Shown here: positions 4,856 to 35,237 of the stretch, one piece after another | Layout: every line of letters begins with the position of its first letter | Numbering within the stretch: position 1 is the stretch's first letter | Origin: Candidatus Saccharimonadota bacterium | GTDB lineage: Bacteria > Patescibacteriota > Saccharimonadia > CAILAD01 > BJGX01 | Assembly (NCBI GenBank): GCA_046350735.1 | Contig: JAXLZU010000001.1 | Coordinates: forward strand, 307,950 to 371,949 | Length of the DNA: 64,000 nt | Reading direction: 5' to 3' | Notes under the pieces: generated by a model | The model's database searches: none | What the model was told of the DNA's origin: nothing | Seen by the model: the letters and a program-made list of their open reading frames with translations, nothing else | Position numbers and translations under genes: made by a program

Positions 4856-7800
4856 ATGGCAGACGCTATTAAAGTAGGTGAGAATGAAATAATTAACAAA
4901 GCTCGGTCTGAGAAGGGGTTTGTTGATTTTGTGCATTTACACACCCATACTCATTACAGCTTGCTCGATGGCTTACAAAAAGTACCAGACTTGGTTAATC
5001 ATATAGAAAGTCTTGGTCAGAATGCCTGTGCTATTACCGACCATGGTACGCTTTCTGGCGCAATTGAGTTTTATAAAGCCTGCAAAGAGAAGGGTATTAA
5101 ACCAATAATAGGTATCGAAACCTACGTTGCCCCTCGTACTCATTTAGACAAAAACAGTGCAGAAGATAGAACACCATTTCACCTTACGCTCTTAGCTGAG
5201 AATATGCAGGGCTATAAAAATCTAATGAAGCTAAGTACGATAGCCAATCTAGAAGGGTTTTATTACAAGCCCCGCATAGACCACGATCTGCTCGAGAAGT
5301 ATAAAGAAGGGCTTATTGTACTCTCTGGTTGTGCAGGTGGTGAGCTAGGCAGTAAGATACTCGATAATAATTATGCCGAAGCAAAAAAAACTGCCGAGTG
5401 GTACAAGCGTGTTTTTGGTAAAGAAAATTATTTCTTAGAGCTACAACCCCACACCGAAGAATTTCAACAAAAAGTTAATACTGGCATTAAGAAGATTGCA
5501 AAAGAGCTCGATCTCAAATTGGTAGCTACTGGCGACTCACACTATTCGATATCCGACCAACATTATGCTCACGATATTTTGCTTTGCGTGCAGACGGGCA
5601 GCACAGTGGATGATGTTAAGCGCATGAAACTAGAGATGGATCTTTCGGTAGCACCTGGTAGTCATTTTGCAGAGTTCTTTAAAGACGTGCCAGAAGCAGT
5701 AAGTAATACAGTAACAATTGCCGAGCGTTGCGAGATAGATATAGAGCTAGGGCAAATCTTAATTCCTCGATTCCCCGATGTACCAAAAGGGAAGACCGAA
5801 AAATCACTATTACGAGAAATGGTGTTTGCTGGTGCTGCCAAGCGCTATACTGATTTGCAAGGTGATAACCTTACAGAAGACAAGGTAAAGCCACATTTGC
5901 CGGCAGAGGTATTAGAGCGAATTGAGTTTGAGCTAAAAGTAATTGGCGATATGGGCTATGAGGGTTATATGCTAATTGTGTCAGACCTTATTAATTGGAG
6001 CAAAGACCAAGGTATTGTCTGTGGCCCCGGGCGTGGGTCGGCAGCCGGCAGCATTATTGCTTATGCTACAGCCATTACCGAGCTCGATCCACTAAAGTAC
6101 GATCTTCTATTTGAGCGATTCTTAAATCCCGACCGTATTAGTATGCCAGATATTGATATGGACTACGCCGATGATAGACGAGAAGAAGTAATTAATTATG
6201 CCACTGAAAAATATGGCCAAGAGCGGGTAGCCCAGATAATTACCTTTGGAGTAATGGCTGCCCGTAACGCAGTACGTGATACCGGTCGTGTGCTAGGCTT
6301 ACCGTATGGTGAGGTAGATGCAATTGCTAAAGTAATACCGGCTCCTATTCAGGGTAGGCATGTACCACTAAAAAAATCTATTGTCGACAACCCAGAGCTA
6401 AAGGCAGAGTACACCAATAATCCCAAGGCCAAAGAAGTAATAGATATTGCTATGCAGCTAGAGGGTACTATTCGTAATGCTGGTACTCACGCCGCTGGTG
6501 TCGTAATTGCACCAGAAAATTTAGTAGAATATGTACCGCTTACACGGGCAAGCAAGGGTGGTGTAGCTACTCAGTATTCTATGAACCCTATCGAAGAGCT
6601 AGGTCTACTTAAATTTGATTTTCTTGGCCTTTCTAACCTAACAATTATTAAGAATACACTGCGTATTATTAAGAAGGTGTATGGCAAAGACATCGATGTT
6701 AATGACATTCCTATAGACGATAAAAAGACCTACGAATTATTAAGTAGAGGCGATACCACTGGTGTATTTCAGTTAGAGTCGGCAGGTATGAAGCGCTACA
6801 TTCGAGACCTTAAGCCTGATAGGTTTGAAGATATTATTGCCATGGTGGCATTGTATCGTCCAGGACCAATGCAGTGGATAGAAGACTTTATTAATCGAAA
6901 GCACAACCCTGGCCTTATTACGTATGGTCACCCTAAGATGCAAGATGCTCTAGAGAATACTTATGGCATTATTGTGTATCAAGAACAAGTAATGCAAATT
7001 GCCAAAGATCTTAGTGGCTTTACGGGTGGCCAGGCCGATACGTTACGCAAAGGTATTGGTAAGAAAATTCCCGAAGTAATTGCTAAGATGAAGCAAGAAT
7101 TTGTCGAAGGTGCTATTAAGACCAGCAAGGTAGATGAAAAATTTATTAACGATCTCTGGAAGAGTATCGAAGACTTTGCGGCTTATTGTTTTAACAAAAG
7201 TCATGCTGCGTGTTATGCACTTATTAGTGTGCAGACAGCATACTTAAAGGCGCACTATCCATCAGCATTTATGGCCGCCCTGCTTACCTCAGACCATGAA
7301 AACTTAGACCGTATAGCGATAGAAGTAACAGAGTGTCGTAAGATGGGTATAGAACTATTGCCACCCGACATTAACGAAAGTTTTGCCGAGTTCGCTGTAG
7401 TACCAGAGACTGGCAATATTCGCTTTGGCTTAGGAGCAATAAAAAATGTCGGCTCGGCACCCATTGAGATAATTCTAGAAGCTCGCAAAGAGGGTGGTAA
7501 GTTTCAGAATCTCGAAGATTTTTGCAAGCGTGTAGATGCTAGTGCTATCAACAAAAAAGTAATGGAGTCACTTATAAAGTGTGGTGCCTTTGATGGTATG
7601 GGAGATAGAGATACCTTACTCGAAAGTGTGGAGGTTATTACTGGCTATGCCTCTAGATTGCAAAAAAATGCTCTCAGTGGGCAAATAGATATTTTTGGCT
7701 CAATGGGTAAGCCCGAAGAAACTCCGCCACTCCGCCTCGTACCGCCAAGTGGTAAGGTAGACCCCCGCACACATTTAATGTGGGAGAAAGAACTTATGGG

Positions 7801-8479
7801 CTTGTTTGTTAGTAGCCATCCATTGGATGATTTTCGTAATTATCTAACATCTAAGGCACAAAGTATAACTAAGTTTTCTAAAATGGATGATGGTGCAGAG
7901 ATTACCATTGGTGGAATTGTAACTGGATTACGCCAAATTTATACTCGCAATAACGATGCCATGGCATTTGTGCAGCTCGAAACGCTCGATAGTGATGTAG
8001 AAGTAGTGGTTTTTCCACGCGTTTGGGAAAAGAGTAAAGACCATCTGGCGGTTGATAGCGTAGTACTAATTACCGGCAAGATTAATGCCAAAGACAGAGA
8101 AGGTAAGTTGGTAGACGAGCTTAAAGTTTTGGCCGATAGCGTTAAGCCCACAGTAGCTGAGACAGCACGTATGTTTCCGCCACCAGAACAGACTATTGAG
8201 GGTGCAGTTGCACAAGAAGATTTGCCTAATGAAAATATTGAGAGTATTACTATTAGCTTGCAGTCTACTACAGAGGGCGAGAAACTCTTACTTATTAAGC
8301 GACACCTAGAAGCCCACAAAGGCAGTGTGCCAATTATGCTATATTTTGCAGCAACATCGCAAAACCTACGCTTGCCTGGCGGTATTGATGGGTCAGAGAG
8401 TTTAATTGCCGGGCTAATAGAGATAGTTGGTGAGAGTAATGTGGTTATCAAAAAGAAACCCACACCAGTGTCTTCTTAA
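4856..8479 (+). CDS. dnaE: DNA polymerase III alpha subunit
   Basis: PHP-domain start HLHTHTHYSLLDG; 1207 aa; polymerase core motifs; RBS GGAGGG upstream. Confidence 0.95.
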   Translation: MADAIKVGENEIINKARSEKGFVDFVHLHTHTHYSLLDGLQKVPDLVNHIESLGQNACAITDHGTLSGAIEFYKACKEKGIKPIIGIETYVAPRTHLDKNSAEDRTPFHLTLLAENMQGYKNLMKLSTIANLEGFYYKPRIDHDLLEKYKEGLIVLSGCAGGELGSKILDNNYAEAKKTAEWYKRVFGKENYFLELQPHTEEFQQKVNTGIKKIAKELDLKLVATGDSHYSISDQHYAHDILLCVQTGSTVDDVKRMKLEMDLSVAPGSHFAEFFKDVPEAVSNTVTIAERCEIDIELGQILIPRFPDVPKGKTEKSLLREMVFAGAAKRYTDLQGDNLTEDKVKPHLPAEVLERIEFELKVIGDMGYEGYMLIVSDLINWSKDQGIVCGPGRGSAAGSIIAYATAITELDPLKYDLLFERFLNPDRISMPDIDMDYADDRREEVINYATEKYGQERVAQIITFGVMAARNAVRDTGRVLGLPYGEVDAIAKVIPAPIQGRHVPLKKSIVDNPELKAEYTNNPKAKEVIDIAMQLEGTIRNAGTHAAGVVIAPENLVEYVPLTRASKGGVATQYSMNPIEELGLLKFDFLGLSNLTIIKNTLRIIKKVYGKDIDVNDIPIDDKKTYELLSRGDTTGVFQLESAGMKRYIRDLKPDRFEDIIAMVALYRPGPMQWIEDFINRKHNPGLITYGHPKMQDALENTYGIIVYQEQVMQIAKDLSGFTGGQADTLRKGIGKKIPEVIAKMKQEFVEGAIKTSKVDEKFINDLWKSIEDFAAYCFNKSHAACYALISVQTAYLKAHYPSAFMAALLTSDHENLDRIAIEVTECRKMGIELLPPDINESFAEFAVVPETGNIRFGLGAIKNVGSAPIEIILEARKEGGKFQNLEDFCKRVDASAINKKVMESLIKCGAFDGMGDRDTLLESVEVITGYASRLQKNALSGQIDIFGSMGKPEETPPLRLVPPSGKVDPRTHLMWEKELMGLFVSSHPLDDFRNYLTSKAQSITKFSKMDDGAEITIGGIVTGLRQIYTRNNDAMAFVQLETLDSDVEVVVFPRVWEKSKDHLAVDSVVLITGKINAKDREGKLVDELKVLADSVKPTVAETARMFPPPEQTIEGAVAQEDLPNENIESITISLQSTTEGEKLLLIKRHLEAHKGSVPIMLYFAATSQNLRLPGGIDGSESLIAGLIEIVGESNVVIKKKPTPVSS

Positions 8480-8481
8480 AT

Positions 8482-8513
8482 AAAAAAACCGAAGCATTAG
8501 CTTCGGTAAAAAC
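8482..8513. terminator. bidirectional intrinsic terminator (A-tract, CCGAAGC/GCTTCGG hairpin, T-tract on the minus strand)
   Basis: Perfect 7-bp GC-containing hairpin between dnaE (plus) and the convergent minus-strand gene ending at 8517. Confidence 0.7.
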
Positions 8514-8516
8514 AAA

Positions 8517-8951
8517 TTAGTATCTGATCAGACGAGTGCGCAAGGTGTGAGCATCTTTTTGCAAACGAGCAATCTTGGCTCGCAGTGCTTCGATTTCGGC
8601 TTCAGCCTTTTGCTTTCTAATTACATAAGATTCGATAGTAGAAGCGCTTAGGCTTTCGTCGCGGAGTTGATCGGCAAACTGACGGTGACGTGCATGTAAC
8701 AACTCGAAATCGTTCTGTGCTTGCACCAGATCGGCCTCGATGCGTGCAAGTGCACGCTGGCGCCTGGCTTGCTTGCCGCGGGTAAGAAGATGTGTTCTGT
8801 ATGCCGCAGCCTGTCTACCAAGATCGGGGTCGTCATTATCAACAAAGGCATATCTATCATGCGCGGCCATCGGTTGCTCCTTTGCGGATGCGAGGTGCTT
8901 GTCGGGGAGATCCCGCCACAAACTTCGATTCGCCAACTTGCGGACTATCAA
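8517..8951 (-). CDS. hypothetical coiled-coil protein (GC-rich gene)
   Basis: 144-aa ORF; heptad-like C-terminus IEALRAKIARLQKDAHTLRTRL; G+C much higher than neighbours; the true start may be an internal Met. Confidence 0.4.
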   Translation of the reverse strand: MIVRKLANRSLWRDLPDKHLASAKEQPMAAHDRYAFVDNDDPDLGRQAAAYRTHLLTRGKQARRQRALARIEADLVQAQNDFELLHARHRQFADQLRDESLSASTIESYVIRKQKAEAEIEALRAKIARLQKDAHTLRTRLIRY

Positions 8952-8999
8952 AATTTCTGGTGGTGCTGCGATGTATCCCTCGCAGCGGGGGGTAATAAA

Positions 9000-9419
9000 T
9001 TAAGCCACCTCAGGAACGAGACGCTCACCCTTCTGGATGAGATCCTTGTTGCTGAGAACACGACCGTCACCAAAGCGTGGAAGCCAGCCGAAGTAGGTAA
9101 TGGCATCTAGGCTGTTGCGAAACAGCCAGTACACCACCACGGTATCCGCTGCATCGGCCACATAGTGGGCGTTACGCTCGAGAGCATAACGCTTGGCATC
9201 GTCATCCACCTTGCGACTAATGACGCTGCAGTAGTAGCGCCACTCTCGGTCGCTGTCGCGCAGACGAAATGCGGCTTGTACCAAGATGATCTCACCCTGG
9301 TAAACGAAGATCATACCCGGCTTAAAGCGAAGCTTTGGTGGCTTTATCTTGCTCTCATCCACCCACATCATGGCGTTGTGGTGAGAGTGAGGAACAGCAA
9401 CTTGCTTTCCTTGGTTCAT
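9000..9419 (-). CDS. hypothetical protein (GC-rich gene)
   Basis: 139-aa ORF preceded by a GAGGAGAG RBS; no recognisable domain. Confidence 0.45.
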   Translation of the reverse strand: MNQGKQVAVPHSHHNAMMWVDESKIKPPKLRFKPGMIFVYQGEIILVQAAFRLRDSDREWRYYCSVISRKVDDDAKRYALERNAHYVADAADTVVVYWLFRNSLDAITYFGWLPRFGDGRVLSNKDLIQKGERLVPEVA

Positions 9420-9585
9420 CTCATACTCTCCTCAAGGGTGCGAACTGTCTTCTCGATTGAGAACCATAGTATTGTATCAGAAAAACACCAAAAAGTCAAT
9501 TATATTAAAACAATTTTTATGTTGCTGCGCTATGTGGGTAAATACTCTTGCCAGAGTTTACCAGATGTGCTACACTATTTGGGTT

Positions 9586-10266
9586 ATGAATCCTATCGCA
9601 ACCCTAGAAGCTAGCCAGAAGAAGGCCAAATTACCAGAAATTCATTCAGGTGATACTGTTAGAGTACACCAGAGAATTACTGAAGGTAAAAAGAGTCGTG
9701 TTCAGGTATTTGAAGGCCTGGTAATTCGTTACAGCAAGGCTGGCAGCTTGCAAGCTATTATTACTGTACGCAAGATAGCTTCTGGTGTAGGGGTAGAAAA
9801 GAGCTGGTTGGTACACAGTCCATCTGTAGAAAAGATTCAAGTTGTGAAACGTAGTAAGGTACGGAGAGCATTTCTTAGCTATATGCGAGATAGAAGTGGT
9901 AAATCGGCTAGATTGGCCGAAATGGGCTTCGATAAAGAAGCTACCAATGCTGCGGATAACCGCACTGCTACCCAAATAGCCGAAGAATCAAAGGCTGCAG
10001 AAGAGGAAGCAAAAATTGCTAAAGAAGAAGAAAAGCTCGACGGCGATAAAGCTGCTAAAAACGATGAAGCCCTCCAAGTAGAAGAAAGTACCGAAGATGT
10101 TGCTAAAGAAGAAGACAAAAAAGCCGCACAAGATGACGCTACTCCAGCCAGTGATAACGAGCCAAAAGATGCTCCAGCTGACGAAAAAGTAAATTCTGAC
10201 GGTAACGACGAGCAACAAGAAGCCGCCGAAGAATTTAAAGACGGCGTAGACAAAGCCGAGAAGTAA
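9586..10266 (+). CDS. rplS: 50S ribosomal protein L19 with a ~110-aa Lys/Glu/Ala/Asp-rich C-terminal extension
   Basis: Core GDTVRVHQRITEGKKSRVQVFEGLVIRYSKAG...TVRKIASGVGVEKSW...VKRSKVRRAFLSYMRDRSGKSARL matches L19; ATG at 9586 chosen over the upstream ORF-track start. Confidence 0.85.
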   Translation: MNPIATLEASQKKAKLPEIHSGDTVRVHQRITEGKKSRVQVFEGLVIRYSKAGSLQAIITVRKIASGVGVEKSWLVHSPSVEKIQVVKRSKVRRAFLSYMRDRSGKSARLAEMGFDKEATNAADNRTATQIAEESKAAEEEAKIAKEEEKLDGDKAAKNDEALQVEESTEDVAKEEDKKAAQDDATPASDNEPKDAPADEKVNSDGNDEQQEAAEEFKDGVDKAEK

Positions 10267-10361
10267 AAACATTATTTCTAAAAACATCCCCATAAGAGGA
10301 TGTTTTTAGTTATAAATAAAAAGCCCGAGTAAATAACTCGGGCAATAAGTAAGAGTAACAC

Positions 10362-10604
10362 TTAACGTGTAGCCAAGATGTGGCCAATATAGGTGCCTTC
10401 GAGACTCCAGACGCAGTGGTCGATAATCTCCCAACCACGCTGCTCAAACTGCTTGCGCATGTCATTCCAGCTGTCGAAATCTTCGAAATAATTACCATCT
10501 TCGTCATAGACCCTTACAGCAGGCTCTTTTAGAAGCTTACTTACAGGCTCTACAATAAAGTACCTTGTGGTAAATCGTGTCTTTACCTCGAGAAGTTCTT
10601 GCAA
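10362..10604 (-). CDS. hypothetical protein (GC-rich); in frame with the upstream gene across a single TAG
   Basis: 80-aa ORF with a TTG start; same reading frame as 10623-11009, separated only by TAG at 10623-10625 plus 6 codons. Confidence 0.35.
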   Translation of the reverse strand: MQELLEVKTRFTTRYFIVEPVSKLLKEPAVRVYDEDGNYFEDFDSWNDMRKQFEQRGWEIIDHCVWSLEGTYIGHILATR

Positions 10605-10622
10605 CTTAGCCCACCTCTCAGA

Positions 10623-11009
10623 CTAGACCGAGTTCTTCGGCTGGAATAGTGACGGTAATTTGAACACCATACTCAAAGTGGGGCTGAATTTTGCGAAGAT
10701 TTGGCAGTACATCTCTCGGAATTCGCTAGATAGATTGTCGAAACAGGTAAGAATGATGTCTCCAACTTTGCTGGTAACTTCATTCATTTCGCCAAAGCGC
10801 TTGCCGCAGAACGGGCAGTACAGCGCACCAAGAACAAGTGGGGTAAGGGGTGGCCGTAGCTCTTGTGGGTCTCCAAAGGAGTTATCCCAGAGAACGCCGG
10901 CACCATTTTGATGAGTAATTAGCATCCATTCGGGCTTCATCTCACAGGTGTGATCTTTGGCATCTGCAAGCAGTTCGCGATTTAACTGCAGTTCGGCAGC
11001 AGTTGGCAT
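10623..11009 (-). CDS. hypothetical protein with CxxC...HxC zinc-ribbon-like motif (GC-rich)
   Basis: ATG at 11009 chosen (MPTAAELQ...); contains CPFCGKRF and HTCEM; the track start (TTG 11183) would overlap the upstream gene. Confidence 0.4.
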   Translation of the reverse strand: MPTAAELQLNRELLADAKDHTCEMKPEWMLITHQNGAGVLWDNSFGDPQELRPPLTPLVLGALYCPFCGKRFGEMNEVTSKVGDIILTCFDNLSSEFREMYCQIFAKFSPTLSMVFKLPSLFQPKNSV

Positions 11010-11052
11010 TACGCGCTCCTCTCGAGCTTGTCGATGTTCTGGGTAATTTCTC

Positions 11053-11499
11053 TCAGCGAATGATCGCGCCAGGTATCCAGTTAATCGGTTTGGATACGCC
11101 AAGTTCTGAGAGCTCGCGCTCGAGTTCATCTTGATGATGACTGCAATATTCATCGACTTCACTTCTACTAAGTAGCTGGTCAACTCGTTCGAGCTGCTCT
11201 AACGTAACTTCTTCGCGGTGCCATATTAGATAATGCACTGCTAGTGAGTTGGTAGTCTCACCATTAGCAAGTTGATAGTCTACGTTAGAGCTAAGCGCCC
11301 CACATCGGCAGACATGCCGACCCCTTGTTGCTACTCCAGACCGAAATATTCCATCTCGAATACCCAAAACACCAGTCCGCCCACTAGATTTGGCCTCGTG
11401 CAGTGCACACAACATTTTTAGTGTAAATGTATCAATTACTGGTTCTGTCGACCTCCAACTAATTGGTTCGATATAGAGCAATGCATCTTCAGTGTACAT
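11053..11499 (-). CDS. hypothetical protein (GC-rich)
   Basis: ATG at 11499 (MYTEDALLYIEP...); overlaps the stop of the upstream gene by 11 nt. Confidence 0.4.
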   Translation of the reverse strand: MYTEDALLYIEPISWRSTEPVIDTFTLKMLCALHEAKSSGRTGVLGIRDGIFRSGVATRGRHVCRCGALSSNVDYQLANGETTNSLAVHYLIWHREEVTLEQLERVDQLLSRSEVDEYCSHHQDELERELSELGVSKPINWIPGAIIR

Positions 11500-11761
11500 G
11501 AGCACTCCTCTCGAGCAACATGTTGGCGTGGGCAAGCAAGGGTTGCATTTCTTCTGTAGGGCCATGGAATACAATATGCTTAGTAAATGGTTGATGCTGT
11601 TTTTTAAGTCTAAGCACAATGCAACTTCTATCGGTAGAAGCTACCTCATATCTGCTACGTGTATAGACCTGCAGAGAATGCAGACCAATACTAGCAGCTT
11701 CTTCTATGGGGCTTCGAACAACCGGGTCTTCAAGTGTGCTAACAAAGCCGATGGTGATCAT
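11489..11761 (-). CDS. hypothetical protein (GC-rich)
   Basis: 90-aa ORF directly abutting the stop of the upstream gene (11762). Confidence 0.4.
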   Translation of the reverse strand: MITIGFVSTLEDPVVRSPIEEAASIGLHSLQVYTRSRYEVASTDRSCIVLRLKKQHQPFTKHIVFHGPTEEMQPLLAHANMLLERSAHVH

Positions 11762-12139
11762 CTATTCCTGCTCCTCCTCTTCTGGCATATCCCACCACAT
11801 AGGGTCGGGTAATTCGCCAAATCGAGCGGAAAAATGTGGCTCGAGTATCTTAACAAGGTCTATGGCCTTATTATGACGCGAATGTACAAAGATACGGCGG
11901 ATAACAAGTGGGGTACGACTCTGTTGATTTTCAATAAGCCATTCGGCAAGCGCCATGGTGTTGGGCGAGCCAATACCATAATTACTGCTCATGTCATAAT
12001 CGAGCCAGAGCTCATCTATTACTTCAGCAGACTGCAAAAACGAAGTAAGTAGCTCAACAGCTACATCAGTGTTTCGGCAATGAAATGCTCGTGAATCTGC
12101 CGAAAGGCGAATATCGTCTACTACGACGATTTTTCCCAT
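11762..12139 (-). CDS. stand-alone receiver (CheY-like REC fold) domain protein
   Basis: MGKIVVVDD N-terminus (acidic pair), LWLDYDM at the phospho-acceptor position, conserved K near the C-terminus; strong RBS CAGGAGAGAAGG before ATG 12139. Confidence 0.5.
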   Translation of the reverse strand: MGKIVVVDDIRLSADSRAFHCRNTDVAVELLTSFLQSAEVIDELWLDYDMSSNYGIGSPNTMALAEWLIENQQSRTPLVIRRIFVHSRHNKAIDLVKILEPHFSARFGELPDPMWWDMPEEEEQE

Positions 12140-12272
12140 CCTTCTCTCCTGTAGGGTACTCGCTACCAGGGACGATTGCGAACTGGTAAATATTAGCATA
12201 AAAATAATGAATAGTCAATAGATCATAAACCGAGTAGCGGTGGTATAATTGCCCTATTCTTAAAGGAGGCGG

Positions 12273-12878
12273 ATGGTAGTAACAGCAAGCTCTACTCTAG
12301 AGCAAAAGCTATATAAAGAGGGTGTTTTGCTAGTAGCCGGAATAGACGAGGTTGGCAGAGGTGCGTTGGCGGGGCCACTGGTAGCTGGTTGTGTAATATT
12401 ACCACTAGATCATCGGCTCGGCCTGGCAGATTCTAAATTGATATCTGCAAAAAAGCGCACTAGTATAGCCGAGCAGATAAGAAGTAGTGCTGTTGGCTTT
12501 GGTCTTGGTTGGGTTAGCAACACAGAAATTGATGAATTTGGTTTAGCTTGGTGCTTGCAAGAAGCGTATCTAAGAGCTCTAGAAAATATGCACTTAGAGG
12601 TAAGCCATATTATCTTAGACGGCTCGGTAGACTATTTAAAAGAATTTGAAATTTGCCAAACTATGGTTAAGGCCGACCAGAAGGTAAATTGTGTGGCGGC
12701 GGCAAGCATTCTGGCCAAAGTAGCACGCGATAATTACATGCAAAGCCTGTGCGAGCAGTACCCAGAGTACTGTTACGATACCAATGTAGGGTATGGTACC
12801 AAAGCACACAGAGAAGCTCTTTCCAAGCATGGGCTAACAGATATTCATAGAAAAAGTTTTTGTAGACAATTCAAATAA
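12273..12878 (+). CDS. rnhB: ribonuclease HII
   Basis: N-terminal AGIDEVGRGALAGPLVAGCVIL RNase HII motif; 201 aa. Confidence 0.9.
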   Translation: MVVTASSTLEQKLYKEGVLLVAGIDEVGRGALAGPLVAGCVILPLDHRLGLADSKLISAKKRTSIAEQIRSSAVGFGLGWVSNTEIDEFGLAWCLQEAYLRALENMHLEVSHIILDGSVDYLKEFEICQTMVKADQKVNCVAAASILAKVARDNYMQSLCEQYPEYCYDTNVGYGTKAHREALSKHGLTDIHRKSFCRQFK

Positions 12879-12926
12879 AAAACCGACAACCACGTGTCGG
12901 TAAATAAGCTGGCACTGATCTGCAGG

Positions 12927-13235
12927 CTATTCAGCCATTTCTTCATGAAATATTCTCCAAGATCTTTTATCATATGTATGGGATAACTCACCAATAACAA
13001 TTGATAAATACAAACTTAAAAGCATGCCCCCACCAAAGCTTCCAGATAAGATAAGAAATAATGAATTACCTGAAAATAATAGCATTAGACTAAACAAACA
13101 AAAGAGTATTATACAAATCAGTAAGATGACATCAATCTTGCCTTCTAACTCAAACAACACATCAGCCTTAGCTTTACTGCTTATATATTGCTCATGTAAT
13201 TCCAGAAGATGTGATTCTGAAGTTTTTTTACCCAC
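12927..13235 (-). CDS. hypothetical small membrane protein
   Basis: 102 aa; two predicted TM helices; followed on the minus strand by the CCGACA..TGTCGG terminator hairpin at ~12884-12912. Confidence 0.4.
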   Translation of the reverse strand: MGKKTSESHLLELHEQYISSKAKADVLFELEGKIDVILLICIILFCLFSLMLLFSGNSLFLILSGSFGGGMLLSLYLSIVIGELSHTYDKRSWRIFHEEMAE

Positions 13236-13337
13236 TTTGCGACTCCATTTGTAGGGTGCGACTGCTGATTATTTTATTGAATATATTTTTTGAAGTCAAT
13301 TGCTTGCATATTTGCCGCAGTGTGCCACTATAATTAC

Positions 13338-13694
13338 ATGAAAAACACTACTTCTATTGGTAATCAATCAGAAACATTCGCGTGTCATTATCTAGTCGAC
13401 AAAGGTTATACAATAGTACAACGTAACTATAAAGACCGCTTTTGCGAGATAGATATTGTTGCTCGTAATAACACTACTATAGTCTTTGTAGAGGTTAAAT
13501 ATCGCAGACGCCGAGACTTTGGCGGCGCTATAGGGGCAGTTACACCAAATAAAGTTAAAAGAATGCAATACTCGGCCGAATTTTGGCTAAGCCAACACCA
13601 AGAATTGGCCAGACTGCAACCAAGACTAGACGTTATTACTGTTGTGGGTGATATCTCTACGCCCGAAGTAACTCATCTAGAAAATATTATGTAA
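13338..13694 (+). CDS. yraN: YraN/UPF0102 family endonuclease
   Basis: CEIDIVARNNTTIVFVEVKYRRRRDFGG motif; ATG 13338 gives the typical ~118-aa length; commonly follows rnhB. Confidence 0.75.
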   Translation: MKNTTSIGNQSETFACHYLVDKGYTIVQRNYKDRFCEIDIVARNNTTIVFVEVKYRRRRDFGGAIGAVTPNKVKRMQYSAEFWLSQHQELARLQPRLDVITVVGDISTPEVTHLENIM

Positions 13695-13867
13695 AAAACC
13701 TGTGTTAGCACTCTTGCATGCCGAGTGCCAATGTGCTATTATAGACACATAGTTTGAACACTTAGAAAGGAGTCGGAACTGTTTTAAAACAAAAAACAAC
13801 CGGCTCTTTATTGTTCAAACACCAACTACAACTGAATAACAATTGAATAGAAAAGGAAAAGTATACC

Positions 13868-15079
13868 ATGCAAAACCAATTTATATCAGCCATCGAACAA
13901 ATTTGTGAAGAAAAAGGCATTAGTAAAGAGTCTGTACTAGAGGCTATTGCTGCTGCTATGGCTGCTGCCTACAAAAAAGATTATGGCGATAAAGACCAAG
14001 AAGTGCGCGCCGAGCTAGATCCAAAGACTGGTGCAGCACGCATTTTTATTAGCAAAGAAGTGGTAAAGAAGATAGACGAAGGTTTTGAAGAATTACAAAT
14101 GACTCTCGAAGATGCCAAGAAGATTAACTCCGATATTAAGGTTGGCGAAATGGTAGAGTACGAAGAAAAAACTCACACCGATTTTGGTCGTGTAGCTGCA
14201 CAAACTGCCAAGCAAGTTATTATGCAGCGTATTCGCGAAGCCGAGCGAGAAGTAGTATTTAGTGAATTTTCTGATAAAGAAGGCCAAATTATTAACTCTA
14301 CTGTGCAACGCGTAGAGCGAGGTAATGTGTACATAGACCTTGGCCATGCTGTGGGTGTACTTTTTCCTAACGATCAGTTGCCTAACGAGCGCTATTATAC
14401 TGGTCAGCGCATTAAAGTATATGTTGTTCGTGTAGAACAGACACTAAAAGGTCCACAAATTGTGGTAAGCCGTACTCACCCAGAAATGATTCGCCAACTC
14501 TTCGAGATGGAAGTACCAGAAATCTCTGGTGGTAGTGTAGAAATAGTAAATATTGCTCGCGAAGCCGGTGCTCGCACTAAAATTGCCGTAAAAAGTAATA
14601 CCGAAGGTGTAGACCCTGTCGGTACGTTTGTTGGTGGACGTGGATCGCGTGTGCAAGCAGTAATGAACGAAATTGGTGATGAAAAGATAGATATTATTCC
14701 ATTTAGCGAAGACCCTAAGGAATATATTGCCTCAGCACTTAGCCCTACCAAAGTAATTGAAGTAAAGATAAACGAAGAAGAAAAGAAAGCTACAGTAAAA
14801 GTACCAGAAGATCAGCTAAGCTTGGCAATTGGCAAGTCTGGTCAGAATGTTCGTTTGGCTGCCAAGCTAACTGGCTGGAGTGTTGATATTGACGGAGCCG
14901 ATGAAGCCCATGTAGAAGAAACTGCAGATGCAGTTGACGAGCCAAAGACTATTAACACGAAAGACCTCGAAGACTCACTACTAAATGCAGCTAGTACAGA
15001 AGAAACTGCCAAAGAAGATAAAGAAGTAGTAAAAGAAGATCAGACAAAGACAGAAAGCGAACCGCAAGAAGATAAGTAA
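13868..15079 (+). CDS. nusA: transcription termination/antitermination factor NusA with acidic C-terminal tail
   Basis: N-terminal domain, S1 and two KH domains recognisable (e.g. GSRVQAVMNEIGDEKIDIIPFSEDP, IGKSGQNVRLAAKLTGW); 403 aa. Confidence 0.9.
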   Translation: MQNQFISAIEQICEEKGISKESVLEAIAAAMAAAYKKDYGDKDQEVRAELDPKTGAARIFISKEVVKKIDEGFEELQMTLEDAKKINSDIKVGEMVEYEEKTHTDFGRVAAQTAKQVIMQRIREAEREVVFSEFSDKEGQIINSTVQRVERGNVYIDLGHAVGVLFPNDQLPNERYYTGQRIKVYVVRVEQTLKGPQIVVSRTHPEMIRQLFEMEVPEISGGSVEIVNIAREAGARTKIAVKSNTEGVDPVGTFVGGRGSRVQAVMNEIGDEKIDIIPFSEDPKEYIASALSPTKVIEVKINEEEKKATVKVPEDQLSLAIGKSGQNVRLAAKLTGWSVDIDGADEAHVEETADAVDEPKTINTKDLEDSLLNAASTEETAKEDKEVVKEDQTKTESEPQEDK

Positions 15080-32793: not shown

Positions 32794-32880
32794 GCCGCGG
32801 TGGTGGAATTGGTAGACACGCCAGCCTTAGGAGCTGGTGAGGTAACACTCGTGGAGGTTCAAGTCCTCTCCGCGGTACCA
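32794..32880 (+). tRNA. tRNA-Leu (anticodon UAG), class II tRNA with long variable arm, CCA encoded
   Basis: Acceptor GCCGCGG/CCGCGGT, D-arm with AATTGGTAGAC, anticodon stem CCAGC/GCTGG with loop CTTAGGA, T-loop GGTTCAAGTCC, terminal ACCA. Confidence 0.8.
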
Positions 32881-34043: not shown

Positions 34044-34848
34044 CGTAATCACGTTTTTGAACCTTACATTTGCTGCTAAAGAGTAATCTTATGCAGCGAT
34101 AACCAGCTTTTTCTAGAGTATCTGCTTAGCGCGGGTGCACGGTTTGATTCGCCTCATAAAGAATCTGGTTATCGCTGCAGTTTGCAGCAACAGAAGTGTC
34201 ACCGCAGTGTTCTGCGCCTCGCGAGTAATCGCGCTCTGCCCACAGGGGATCGGTGGAGTTGTCGTGTGCCCCAGAACCACACGTTTGCAGCTCTGCCTTA
34301 ATGGTCGGGTATGGGTTAAACTACCAGGCTGCGGTGACACGCCAATCGCTAGCTCGTCATGGATGGCCACGACGTTGGCCGTGAGCTCTCCTGAGCTTGA
34401 AATACGAGCTGGCAGTGATGTGCGGGTTATCTCATGGGTGACCGAACCGAAGTGCGCGCAAGGGAAGACCGATAACCTTGTTCGCTCGGACGATCCTGTG
34501 AGTCGGCAGTAGGCTTCGGTCTCGCCCTCACATCACATGCTCGCGTTCCATCTTGCTTAGTGGGCAGGAATTACCCACCAGGGTGGAACGCACCAATCAG
34601 TGCCGGCTCGCGGAAGCGGGCGAGTACTAGCGGAATCGCCTGTAAAACGGGGGTCTTCGCGAGCCGGCACGTTTTTCCGCGCGCTAGTCTCGCCAGCTGA
34701 GCCATCTCCGGGTGGGGCCAATGCGAGCGGATGCGCCTGAGAGACCGAAGCTGTTGCCAACGGCTGAGGAGCAGTAATTGAGTGCCTACTCCAAAACCAC
34801 TCTTGCCCCGGTCTCTCGGGCGAAATCGAAACAGGTAACTGTTTTGAA

Positions 34849-34917
34849 GGGGACGAAGTTCTTGTGGAAGAACACCTGCCCATCGGCAGGAGGTGTGGTT
34901 CGACTCCACCGTCTCCA
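34849..34917 (+). ncRNA. tRNA-like element inside the large ncRNA (7-bp acceptor, 4-bp D-stem, hairpin with 6-nt loop in place of anticodon arm, tmRNA/tRNA-type T-loop GGTTCGACTCC)
   Basis: GGGGACG...CGTCTCC-A acceptor pairing; GTTC/GAAC D-stem; CCTGC/GCAGG stem with 6-nt loop; the 3' half GTGGTTCGACTCCACCGTCTCCA closely resembles the 3' end of Bacillus-type tmRNA; no encoded CCA. Confidence 0.5.
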
Positions 34918-35237
34918 CTGGTAGTACAATCTCGACGGCGGGCCCTTCCTGTCACCGGCGGAAAGATTGTGCTCCATCCCGGCTTCGGGTCGGGTTGCAC
35001 TAAGGTGTGATGTTCGCTACTAGCGCCTTACGTGTAACTCGGCTCGTCGCCGGACCACCCCCTTGCCTCAATACTAATGTATTGGGGCTTTTCTTATGCA
35101 AACAGGTTGAGTTAAACAAGGTATTATGATATATTTATAAGTATGAATACAGTTAAAACAGCTTGGTTTTATTTTACAAACTCTGTGTCTCGCCGAGGTG
35201 TTTTGCGTTAAAGTCTAAATAGTATGTAATTAATTGT

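Follow-up and report, generated by a model that had tools for sequence, protein, structure and literature searches.

A cyclic-phosphate receiver gene and its changing small partners at a fixed chromosomal site in Saccharibacteria

Proteins with a cyclic-phosphate processing receiver (cREC) domain are found mostly in phages and prophages, and in up to 18% of jumbo phages (PMC7824862 of 2021, PMC9503650 of 2022). Their genes are linked to those for RNA ligases and for Nudix, sirtuin, KptA, 2H and WYL proteins. They have never been found with histidine kinases, and they are predicted, not shown, to resolve 2',3'- or 1''-2''-cyclic phosphates (PMC7824862, PMC9503650). The subject of this report is a cREC gene, g1, that heads a cassette of five small genes (g1 to g5) in a 64,000-nucleotide stretch of DNA from a Candidatus Saccharimonadota bacterium (contig JAXLZU010000001.1, positions 307,950 to 371,949). 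The whole stretch is called the window below. The domain itself is known, and g1 is already correctly labelled in public annotation. What is new is a cREC fixed at one chromosomal site in a bacterium of the candidate phyla radiation (CPR), with orphan micro-protein partners in place of NAD+/RNA-repair enzymes.

The window has a G+C content of 42.3% and consists of housekeeping genes (gatA/gatB, dnaE, rplS, rnhB, yraN, nusA, clpC, tig, clpP, recG, those for EF-G/EF-Tu and for ribosomal proteins). An NCBI record with a copy of g1 is assigned to a metagenome-assembled genome of Candidatus Saccharibacteria. The five open reading frames (ORFs) of the cassette lie exactly where an initial annotation, made from the letters of the window, had placed them, and they are framed by two transcription signals.

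g1, 12139-11762, minus strand: stand-alone cREC protein, 125 residues; G+C 45.8%
g2, 11761-11489, minus strand: orphan partner, 90 residues; G+C 45.1%
g3, 11499-11053, minus strand: member of an uncatalogued phage-borne family, 148 residues; G+C 46.1%
g4, 11009-10623, minus strand: zinc-ribbon-like protein, 128 residues; G+C 48.6%
g5, 10604-10362, minus strand: protein of 80 residues with a TTG start and without a family match; G+C 44.9%
Promoter-like site, 12218-12190, minus strand: TTGACT-17-TAATAT, TG-extended; a consensus match only
Intrinsic terminator, 10343-10323, minus strand: strong; an 8-bp stem, 6 of its pairs GC, followed by a run of T; directly after g5

The first gene encodes a stand-alone cREC protein. 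Its residues 5-91 match Pfam PF20274 (cREC_REC, 'Cyclic-phosphate processing Receiver domain') with a score of 39.4 bits, where the curated cut-off is 27 (E 1e-9). The precomputed Pfam label of all 13 homologues of g1 is cREC as well, and NCBI naming agrees. There is also a match to PHROG 1479, whose function is not assigned (E 4e-8), and no match in NCBIfam. Among the 13 homologues, down to 56% identity, the residues D8, D9, D47, D49, H86 and S87 are invariant, and H89, D112 and W116 are nearly so. The tail of the protein has a conserved LPD-MWW-QPE stretch, with an invariant L-P-x-x-x-W motif. In the AlphaFold2 model the order of strands and helices is that of a receiver; D8/D9 follow beta1, D47 lies where beta3 ends, and S87 follows beta4.

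The closest cRECs found outside Saccharibacteria belong to five Intrasporangiaceae (Actinobacteria) and are 33-49% identical, and a distant homologue lies in an 88-kb viral contig of high G+C. At two actinobacterial loci (L020 4063-5193 and L024 6447-8480; L numbers denote the loci compared) cREC homologues stand near or directly before DUF3293 proteins; no mention of DUF3293 was found in the literature. On a high-G+C metagenome contig (L052 5366-6237) a cREC homologue is followed by two peptide-binding chaperones of the TY-Chap1/YbjN type.

The locus resembles the described systems of prophages and of jumbo and medium-sized phages (PF20274; PMC7824862, PMC9503650) in its first gene, which passes the family model, has the receiver-like fold and the conserved aspartates, is small and stand-alone with no kinase gene within 10 kb, and has phage affinities in PHROG 1479 and the viral-contig homologue. 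It differs from them in its setting. The cREC of the window belongs to the chromosome of an ultra-small CPR bacterium, where its site is fixed. It is accompanied by four orphan partners of 80-148 residues, and not by an RNA ligase, Nudix, sirtuin, KptA, 2H, Macro or WYL protein. Unlike those systems, it also has no BLAST-level match to deposited phages or plasmids: tblastn with g1, g4 and gA (a gene beyond rplS, described below) against phages, and with g1 against plasmids, gave none.

The fixed site was recognised by comparing loci. These were gathered by look-up of the exact protein and by searching collections of genomes, metagenomes and viruses with the cREC alignment, and were compared by tblastn and hidden Markov models. 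A cREC-led cassette occupies the rnhB-rplS site in about ten species-level Saccharibacteria lineages. Wherever the contig of a Saccharibacteria-like locus extends to the flanking genes, cREC is found between rnhB and rplS and runs opposite to them; every sufficiently long contig with the exact rplS of the window carries the cassette. Across the lineages cREC is always present, g2 in 8/10, a g4-like gene in 7/10, g5 in 4/10 and g3 in 2/10. The gene orders are as follows.

Window and L001-L010: g1, g2, g3, g4, g5
L011/L012: the same five genes, with another allele of g2 and of the g1 tail
L017: g1, g2, g4
L040-L042: g1, g2, g4, g5
L063: g1, g2, g4, a 90-residue ORF and the start of a 176-residue-type ORF (contig end)
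L062: g1, g2, a g4-like gene, a 151-residue-type gene
L064: g1, a g4-like gene, a g5-like gene; without g2
L014: g1, g2, a 176-residue gene
L015: g2, g1 (order reversed), a 151-residue gene, a 176-residue gene
L019: g1, then directly a g3 homologue (contig end)

A motif scan with one genome per species found cREC in at least three Saccharibacteria-like representatives, one of them named as such; because the scan picks up only exact matches to a pair of short motifs, this count is a lower bound. Identity to the window across the lineages is 65-74% for rnhB, 80-90% for rplS and 56-75% for g1, so that g1 has diverged about as much as rnhB, which fits vertical descent. Change is faster in g2 (31-64%) and in g4 (from below 30% to 71%).

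In many bacteria rplS and rnhB are neighbours on one strand. The order in Bacillus, trmD-rplS-ylqF-rnhB, likewise has them as near neighbours on one strand. In the window the two genes also share a strand, and the cassette is reversed between them. The initial annotation had proposed a foreign origin for the block. For the distant past this is supported by the phage-associated families, the reversed insertion and an excess of G+C at third codon positions (GC3), but a recent arrival is not, since the same site is occupied in about ten lineages. Among related genomes the presence of the block is largely uniform, and its content is not. Genes of the islands on either side of rplS have a GC3 of 0.5-0.74 against 0.25-0.40 for housekeeping genes, and this holds in every relative. 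Because of this shared excess, and because the nearest outside homologues are in Intrasporangiaceae and a high-G+C viral contig, an ancient foreign source is indicated. The evidence thus supports a cassette that is an old resident, and whose distant source was a gene pool either phage-related or actinobacterial.

The base composition of the block itself deviates less than had been claimed. Each gene was compared with length-matched in-frame samples from 32 housekeeping reference genes (G+C 42.2±2.2%), with 5000 samples. The whole block has a G+C of 46.5% against 43.1±1.0% for length-matched samples, and 0/5000 samples reach that value. The excess is real but modest, at +3.4 points. Taken singly, only g4 (GC3 0.535) and g5 (GC3 0.494) are outliers, and g1, g2 and g3 are not significant (p = 0.07-0.29). 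The description of the block as much higher in G+C than rnhB (43.2%) and rplS (43.7%) is therefore right in direction but overstated in size, and it holds singly only for g4 and g5. The strongly G+C-rich genes of the window are gA and gB on the other side of rplS, which the initial annotation did not include.

The five genes form one transcription unit. The signs of this are the promoter-like site, the terminator, a GGAG-type ribosome-binding site upstream of each gene (the first of which had been noted before) and the abutting or overlapping genes. The promoter-like site sits in a 133-nt divergent spacer that g1 shares with rnhB; the block is divergent from rnhB and convergent with rplS. The genes had been described as tightly chained. 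This is true of g1 and g2, which abut (TAG then ATG), and of g2 and g3, which overlap by 11 nt, but g3 and g4 are separated by 43 nt and g4 and g5 by 18 nt. An Rfam scan of the region gave no match. The same ORFs were called by independent gene callers on separate metagenome contigs, and in pairwise comparison with relatives the ratio of nonsynonymous to synonymous divergence (dN/dS) is 0.1-0.6 for all five. On both grounds g1 to g5 are real genes, and all are under purifying selection.

The second gene, an orphan restricted to one clade, is in almost every case translationally coupled to cREC. It adjoins cREC in 8 of about ten lineages, and it is missing next to cREC in L019 and L064. The coupling takes the form of an abutting stop and start, as in the window, or of a 4-nt overlap, in either gene order. 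The N-terminal MITIG of g2 is invariant. An exhaustive profile search found only about five real clusters at 50% identity, all of 86-105 residues, and no relatives were found in IMG/VR viral contigs. Likewise, searches of Pfam, PHROGs, PADLOC and NCBIfam with g2 to g5, gA and gB gave nothing above threshold. The predicted model of g2 is a small beta-sheet with two helices that weakly resembles PH/EVH1-type folds; it has no helix-turn-helix (HTH), ribbon-helix-helix (RHH) or AbrB fold. Two candidate relationships were rejected by hhalign: one to the TY-chaperones, as found beside an actinobacterial cREC (probability 0.1%), and one to g5.

An example of exchange at this gene is seen in L011, a co-occurring strain whose identity to the window is 97-100% over the region, apart from one patch at 52-81%.

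Recombination patch, 11850-11500, minus strand: cREC C-terminal tail and most of g2; about 350 bp

In this strain g2 and the cREC tail are replaced by an allele that is 63% identical. Between the two strains g2 has a synonymous divergence (dS) of 1.34 and a dN/dS of 0.24, while rplS and nusA are identical at the DNA level, g4 is identical as well, and rnhB and dnaE have a dS of 0.05-0.10. To judge from these alignments, the patch is an imported allele and did not diverge in place. The dN/dS of the swapped g2 points to import of an already diverged allele without positive selection in place.

The third gene belongs to a widespread phage protein family that is absent from Pfam and PHROGs and is new. 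No model of either collection matched any member. Its motifs are LLYIEP, G-x-H-x-C-x-C-G and TNSLA-x-HYL-x-x-HR. The family occurs in 12 viral contigs with a G+C of 28-68%, namely a 635-kb uncultured phage (LR745206.1; 34% identical, E 4e-9) and eleven further contigs. Its invariant elements are L-L-x-I/V-E-P, G-x-H, C66, T-N-S-L-A, Y90 and R95. Residues C64, C66, H89 and H94 make up a Cys2-His2-like set (Cys-x-Cys...His-x4-His), of which one clade has replaced C64, H89 and H94 together and kept C66. The earlier statement that the cassette proteins other than the first and fourth lack recognisable features therefore fails for g3. A relationship between g3 and g4, both of which carry a zinc motif, was rejected, as hhalign found none.

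In LR745206.1 (L028 5044-6411) the g3-family gene is the last of an overlapping string, directly downstream of genes for an RNA ligase (PF09414, E 1e-26) and an HNH endonuclease. As in the phage cREC systems, an RNA ligase is close by; such a context has already been reported for cREC. Near the same string are an HD-domain (HD_4) gene and a Dam methylase gene. No recurrent neighbours of the g3 family were found in phages except among closely related contigs. Two families of the cassette, cREC and g3, are phage-associated.

The position of g3 can be understood from L017, where g3 is absent and the g2 stop overlaps the g4 start within the sequence ...GCCCACGCCAACATGTTGCTCGAGAGGAGCGCGTAATGCC. In the window an intact copy of the GCCCACGCCAACATGTTGCTCGAGAGGAGCGCGTAATGCC junction ends g2 and carries the g3 start. 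A second copy follows g3.

Decayed duplicate, 11046-11007, minus strand: g2 3' end and g2/g4 junction, by comparison with the intact L017 junction

This decayed copy precedes g4 and supplies its ribosome-binding site. Since the junction is intact in the g3-less locus and duplicated around g3 in the window, g3 is a later insertion between g2 and g4, and the duplicate is its insertion scar.

The zinc-ribbon-like motif that had been noted in the fourth gene was confirmed: the invariant core of g4 is H20-x-C22 and C65-P-F-C68 (D-H-x-C ... Y-C-P-F-C-G). No g4 relatives were found in IMG/VR viral contigs. The last approximately 30 residues of the window g4 are frameshifted relative to L001 and L017. 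Co-occurring strains differ by a 1-bp indel (window 10623-10740), so that the C-terminus of g4 has two versions of about 30 residues. In L060 (1125-1790) g4 and g5 are called as one ORF of 221 residues. Identity of the last protein, g5, is 68-79% in L040-L042 and falls to about 40% in L064. It gave the only PADLOC match of any cassette protein, and this was below threshold (PD-T7-1, E 0.005, 13.7 bits).

The explanation preferred here starts from what the comparisons show, a lineage-specific operon of a small Saccharibacteria clade, of ancient acquisition, in which cREC is the anchor and the small partners change. To this it adds the proposal that cREC acts as a cyclic-phosphate enzyme in a conflict role; we give the explanation as a whole about an even chance of being right. 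In this model cREC would be an enzyme, a predicted phosphoesterase, and not a phospho-relay receiver. Its acidic pocket (D8/D9 and D47/D49) would act together with the family-specific H86-S87-x-H89 motif. The substrate may be a cyclic phosphodiester: an RNA end or nucleotide that carries a 2',3'-cyclic phosphate, or a cyclic phosphate of ADP-ribose. The phosphoesterase assignment follows from the prediction in the literature, the invariant acidic pocket and the H-S-x-H motif. The second protein may regulate or target cREC as a bound subunit, with the conserved acidic tail, rich in Pro and Trp, as the possible contact, and the zinc-motif proteins g3 and g4 may supply recognition of the substrate or of nucleic acid. 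The turnover of the partners points to conflict, either with phages or with the bacterial host, and not to housekeeping.

Several observations weigh against this explanation. No experimental paper on any cREC was found in the literature, so that the activity is a published prediction and the proposed mechanism rests on that prediction and on residue conservation. The published cREC partners (RNA ligase, Nudix, sirtuin, KptA, Macro, WYL) were not found among g2 to g5 or the flanking genes. An RNA ligase stands immediately beside the g3 family in one phage only, lies within 5 kb in two related phages, which makes 3/12 contigs in all, and is absent in the other nine. The C-terminal frameshift is tolerated in g4 and g2 is missing in two lineages, which indicates that not all partners are essential to cREC. 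The joint replacement of the cREC tail and g2 is perhaps a single recombination tract. Finally, divergence from L017 (window 4856-15079) is a mosaic, with a dS of 1.5 in dnaE, 0.53 in rplS, 0.04 in nusA and 0.04 in g1; this implies frequent homologous recombination in the population and makes the g2 allele swap less special.

The initial annotation had likened the block to signalling-linked conflict or stress modules. The conflict or stress part is plausible but unproven: gene flux, the imported g2 allele and the phage affinities favour it, but, unlike known anti-phage defence (PADLOC-DB 2.0), no cassette protein passes a threshold. A bolder form of the preferred explanation can be stated, although we think it distinctly unlikely to hold as a whole. 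Here cREC, g2 and the exchangeable tiny zinc-binding or orphan proteins would be an unrecognised compact conflict system of episymbiotic CPR bacteria, captured from their actinobacterial hosts or the phages of these. The cREC would destroy or generate a cyclic-phosphate nucleotide signal, or repair cleaved RNA, and the partners would retarget or gate it in an arms race. If the conflict-system reading is true, the locus is a minimal, genetically tractable system for learning what cREC domains do.

Another model treats cREC and g2 as a toxin-antitoxin-like pair of enzyme and inhibitor, or effector and immunity protein, with the downstream genes as exchangeable accessory or immunity genes, and with phage defence, counter-defence or interaction with the actinobacterial host as its purpose. 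It is unlikely, though it keeps some probability. As in type II toxin-antitoxin pairs, two small adjacent genes (125 and 90 residues) are translationally coupled, and their order flips between lineages, being reversed in L015. The import of a divergent g2 allele with the cREC tail into an otherwise near-identical strain would fit such a pair, as would the fast turnover of downstream genes, the GC3-rich insertions at the site and the phage affinities of cREC and g3. However, no toxin, antitoxin or defence model was matched in Pfam, NCBIfam or PADLOC, and g2 has no toxin-antitoxin family match and, as modelled, no recognisable DNA-binding fold (HTH, RHH or AbrB). The cREC occurs without adjacent g2 in L019 and L064, which would be lethal if a toxin were neutralised by g2 alone. 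Moreover, the dN/dS of 0.24 in the swapped g2 reflects a diverged allele that was imported, not positive selection in place.

A metabolic role is improbable. Saccharibacteria depend on host nucleotides, and under this model cREC would open 2',3'-cyclic nucleotides from RNA breakdown, the partners being incidental. The predicted chemistry of the family agrees with this, as do the stable vertical retention of g1 at a rate close to that of rnhB and the location of its nearest outside relatives in Actinobacteria. Actinobacteria are the phylum of the known hosts of cultured Saccharibacteria. On the other side, no transporter, nuclease or nucleotidase is linked to cREC, and its tight coupling to fast-evolving orphans is atypical of metabolic enzymes. 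The three Saccharibacteria-like species representatives in the motif scan, a lower bound, do not suggest a phylum-wide solution.

It is very improbable that g1 is an atypical single-domain response regulator, in which D47 would be phosphorylated by a kinase encoded elsewhere and g2 to g5 would be output partners. The initial annotation had called g1 a CheY-like receiver domain, and its KIVVVDD...LWLDYD motifs and receiver fold are confirmed. Like CheY-type regulators (PF00072), g1 has a flavodoxin-like alpha/beta fold, a length of about 125 residues without an output domain, an Asp-Asp pair after beta1, an Asp at the end of beta3 and a Ser, in the Ser/Thr position, after beta4. Unlike them, it matches no Pfam family other than cREC_REC at E<=1, Response_reg (PF00072) included, while cREC_REC passes its cut-off. 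The model lacks alpha1, residues 8-17 being a loop, and alpha5, and the homologue alignment has no conserved Lys after beta5, with H-S-x-H in its stead. Nor was a kinase partner seen: there is no kinase gene within 10 kb of cREC in any locus compared, and a crude regular-expression test found no H-box motif in the 64-kb window. Given the PF20274 match, the absence of a Response_reg match and the published properties of the family, 'CheY-like' is right on the fold and wrong on the family. The link to signalling is likewise unsupported, with Response_reg unmatched, the conserved Lys missing and the family reported never to occur with histidine kinases.

That the cassette is what remains of a decaying prophage or moron cluster, without present function, is likewise very improbable: its phage-type families, the g4 frameshift polymorphism, the g4-g5 fusion in one strain and the loss and gain of genes between lineages would fit, but dN/dS is well below 1 for all five genes, the catalytic-type residues of g1 are invariant down to 56% identity, the promoter-like site, ribosome-binding sites and terminator are intact, and the cassette is kept at one site in about ten lineages. 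Unlike a prophage or integrative element, moreover, no cassette locus compared has integrase, structural or replication genes, and neither att-like repeats nor direct repeats beyond chance length flank the block.

For biochemistry this cREC is a convenient minimal system, as it is stand-alone, 125 residues long, long kept in a reduced genome and provided with a near-obligatory partner of 90 residues. Natural variants with and without each accessory gene add to its value as a test case.

A further new result is that the flanks of rplS are a hotspot of gene flux. As in accessory-gene hotspots of the defence-island or phage-moron style, changing small genes and GC3-rich insertions lie between fixed flanks (dnaE, rplS, rnhB), genes are present or absent between strains (a membrane protein in L001; g3 and g5), and alleles are replaced by recombination. 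Unlike such hotspots, the site has an invariant cREC in all lineages examined, which evolves no faster than rnhB, and it has no recognised defence genes, integrase or tRNA target. The interval on the other side of rplS contains a sister island.

Sister island, 8488-9499, minus strand: between dnaE and rplS; conserved in related lineages
Promoter-like site of the sister island, 9499-9471, minus strand
gA, 9419-9000, minus strand: 139 residues; G+C 53.3%, GC3 0.62
gB, 8870-8517 (from 8951 with a TTG start), minus strand: predicted coiled coil; G+C 51.7%, GC3 0.50
Terminator of the sister island, 8507-8488, minus strand

The first of these genes is present in five related lineages (53-88% identical) and the second in three (50-76%). 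Sequence and profile searches of PDB with g1, g3, g4 and gA gave nothing meaningful. Both intervals that flank rplS receive foreign genes of high G+C and undergo allele exchange, a finding of interest for the way in which episymbionts gain genes, perhaps from the Actinobacteria that host them. In L001 an extra gene between dnaE and rplS, not in the window, encodes the membrane protein of 135 residues (G+C 58%, GC3 0.74).

Three further features of the window were observed. A 1-kb patch of 54-61% G+C at 34100-35100, about 1.2 kb downstream of the only tRNA gene of the window (32794-32877), may be another foreign insertion; its ORFs at 34135-34512 (plus strand) and 34557-35000 (minus strand) have no Pfam match. 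Between rnhB and yraN lies a hydrophobic ORF of 102 residues (12927-13235, minus strand) with a G+C of about 32%. It is called by other pipelines in all close strains and is absent in L014, where rnhB adjoins yraN. Finally, rplS (9532-10266, plus strand) encodes an L19 protein that is extended at its C-terminus by about 120 residues with much Glu, Asp, Lys and Ala. The extension roughly doubles the usual length and is conserved in all related loci.

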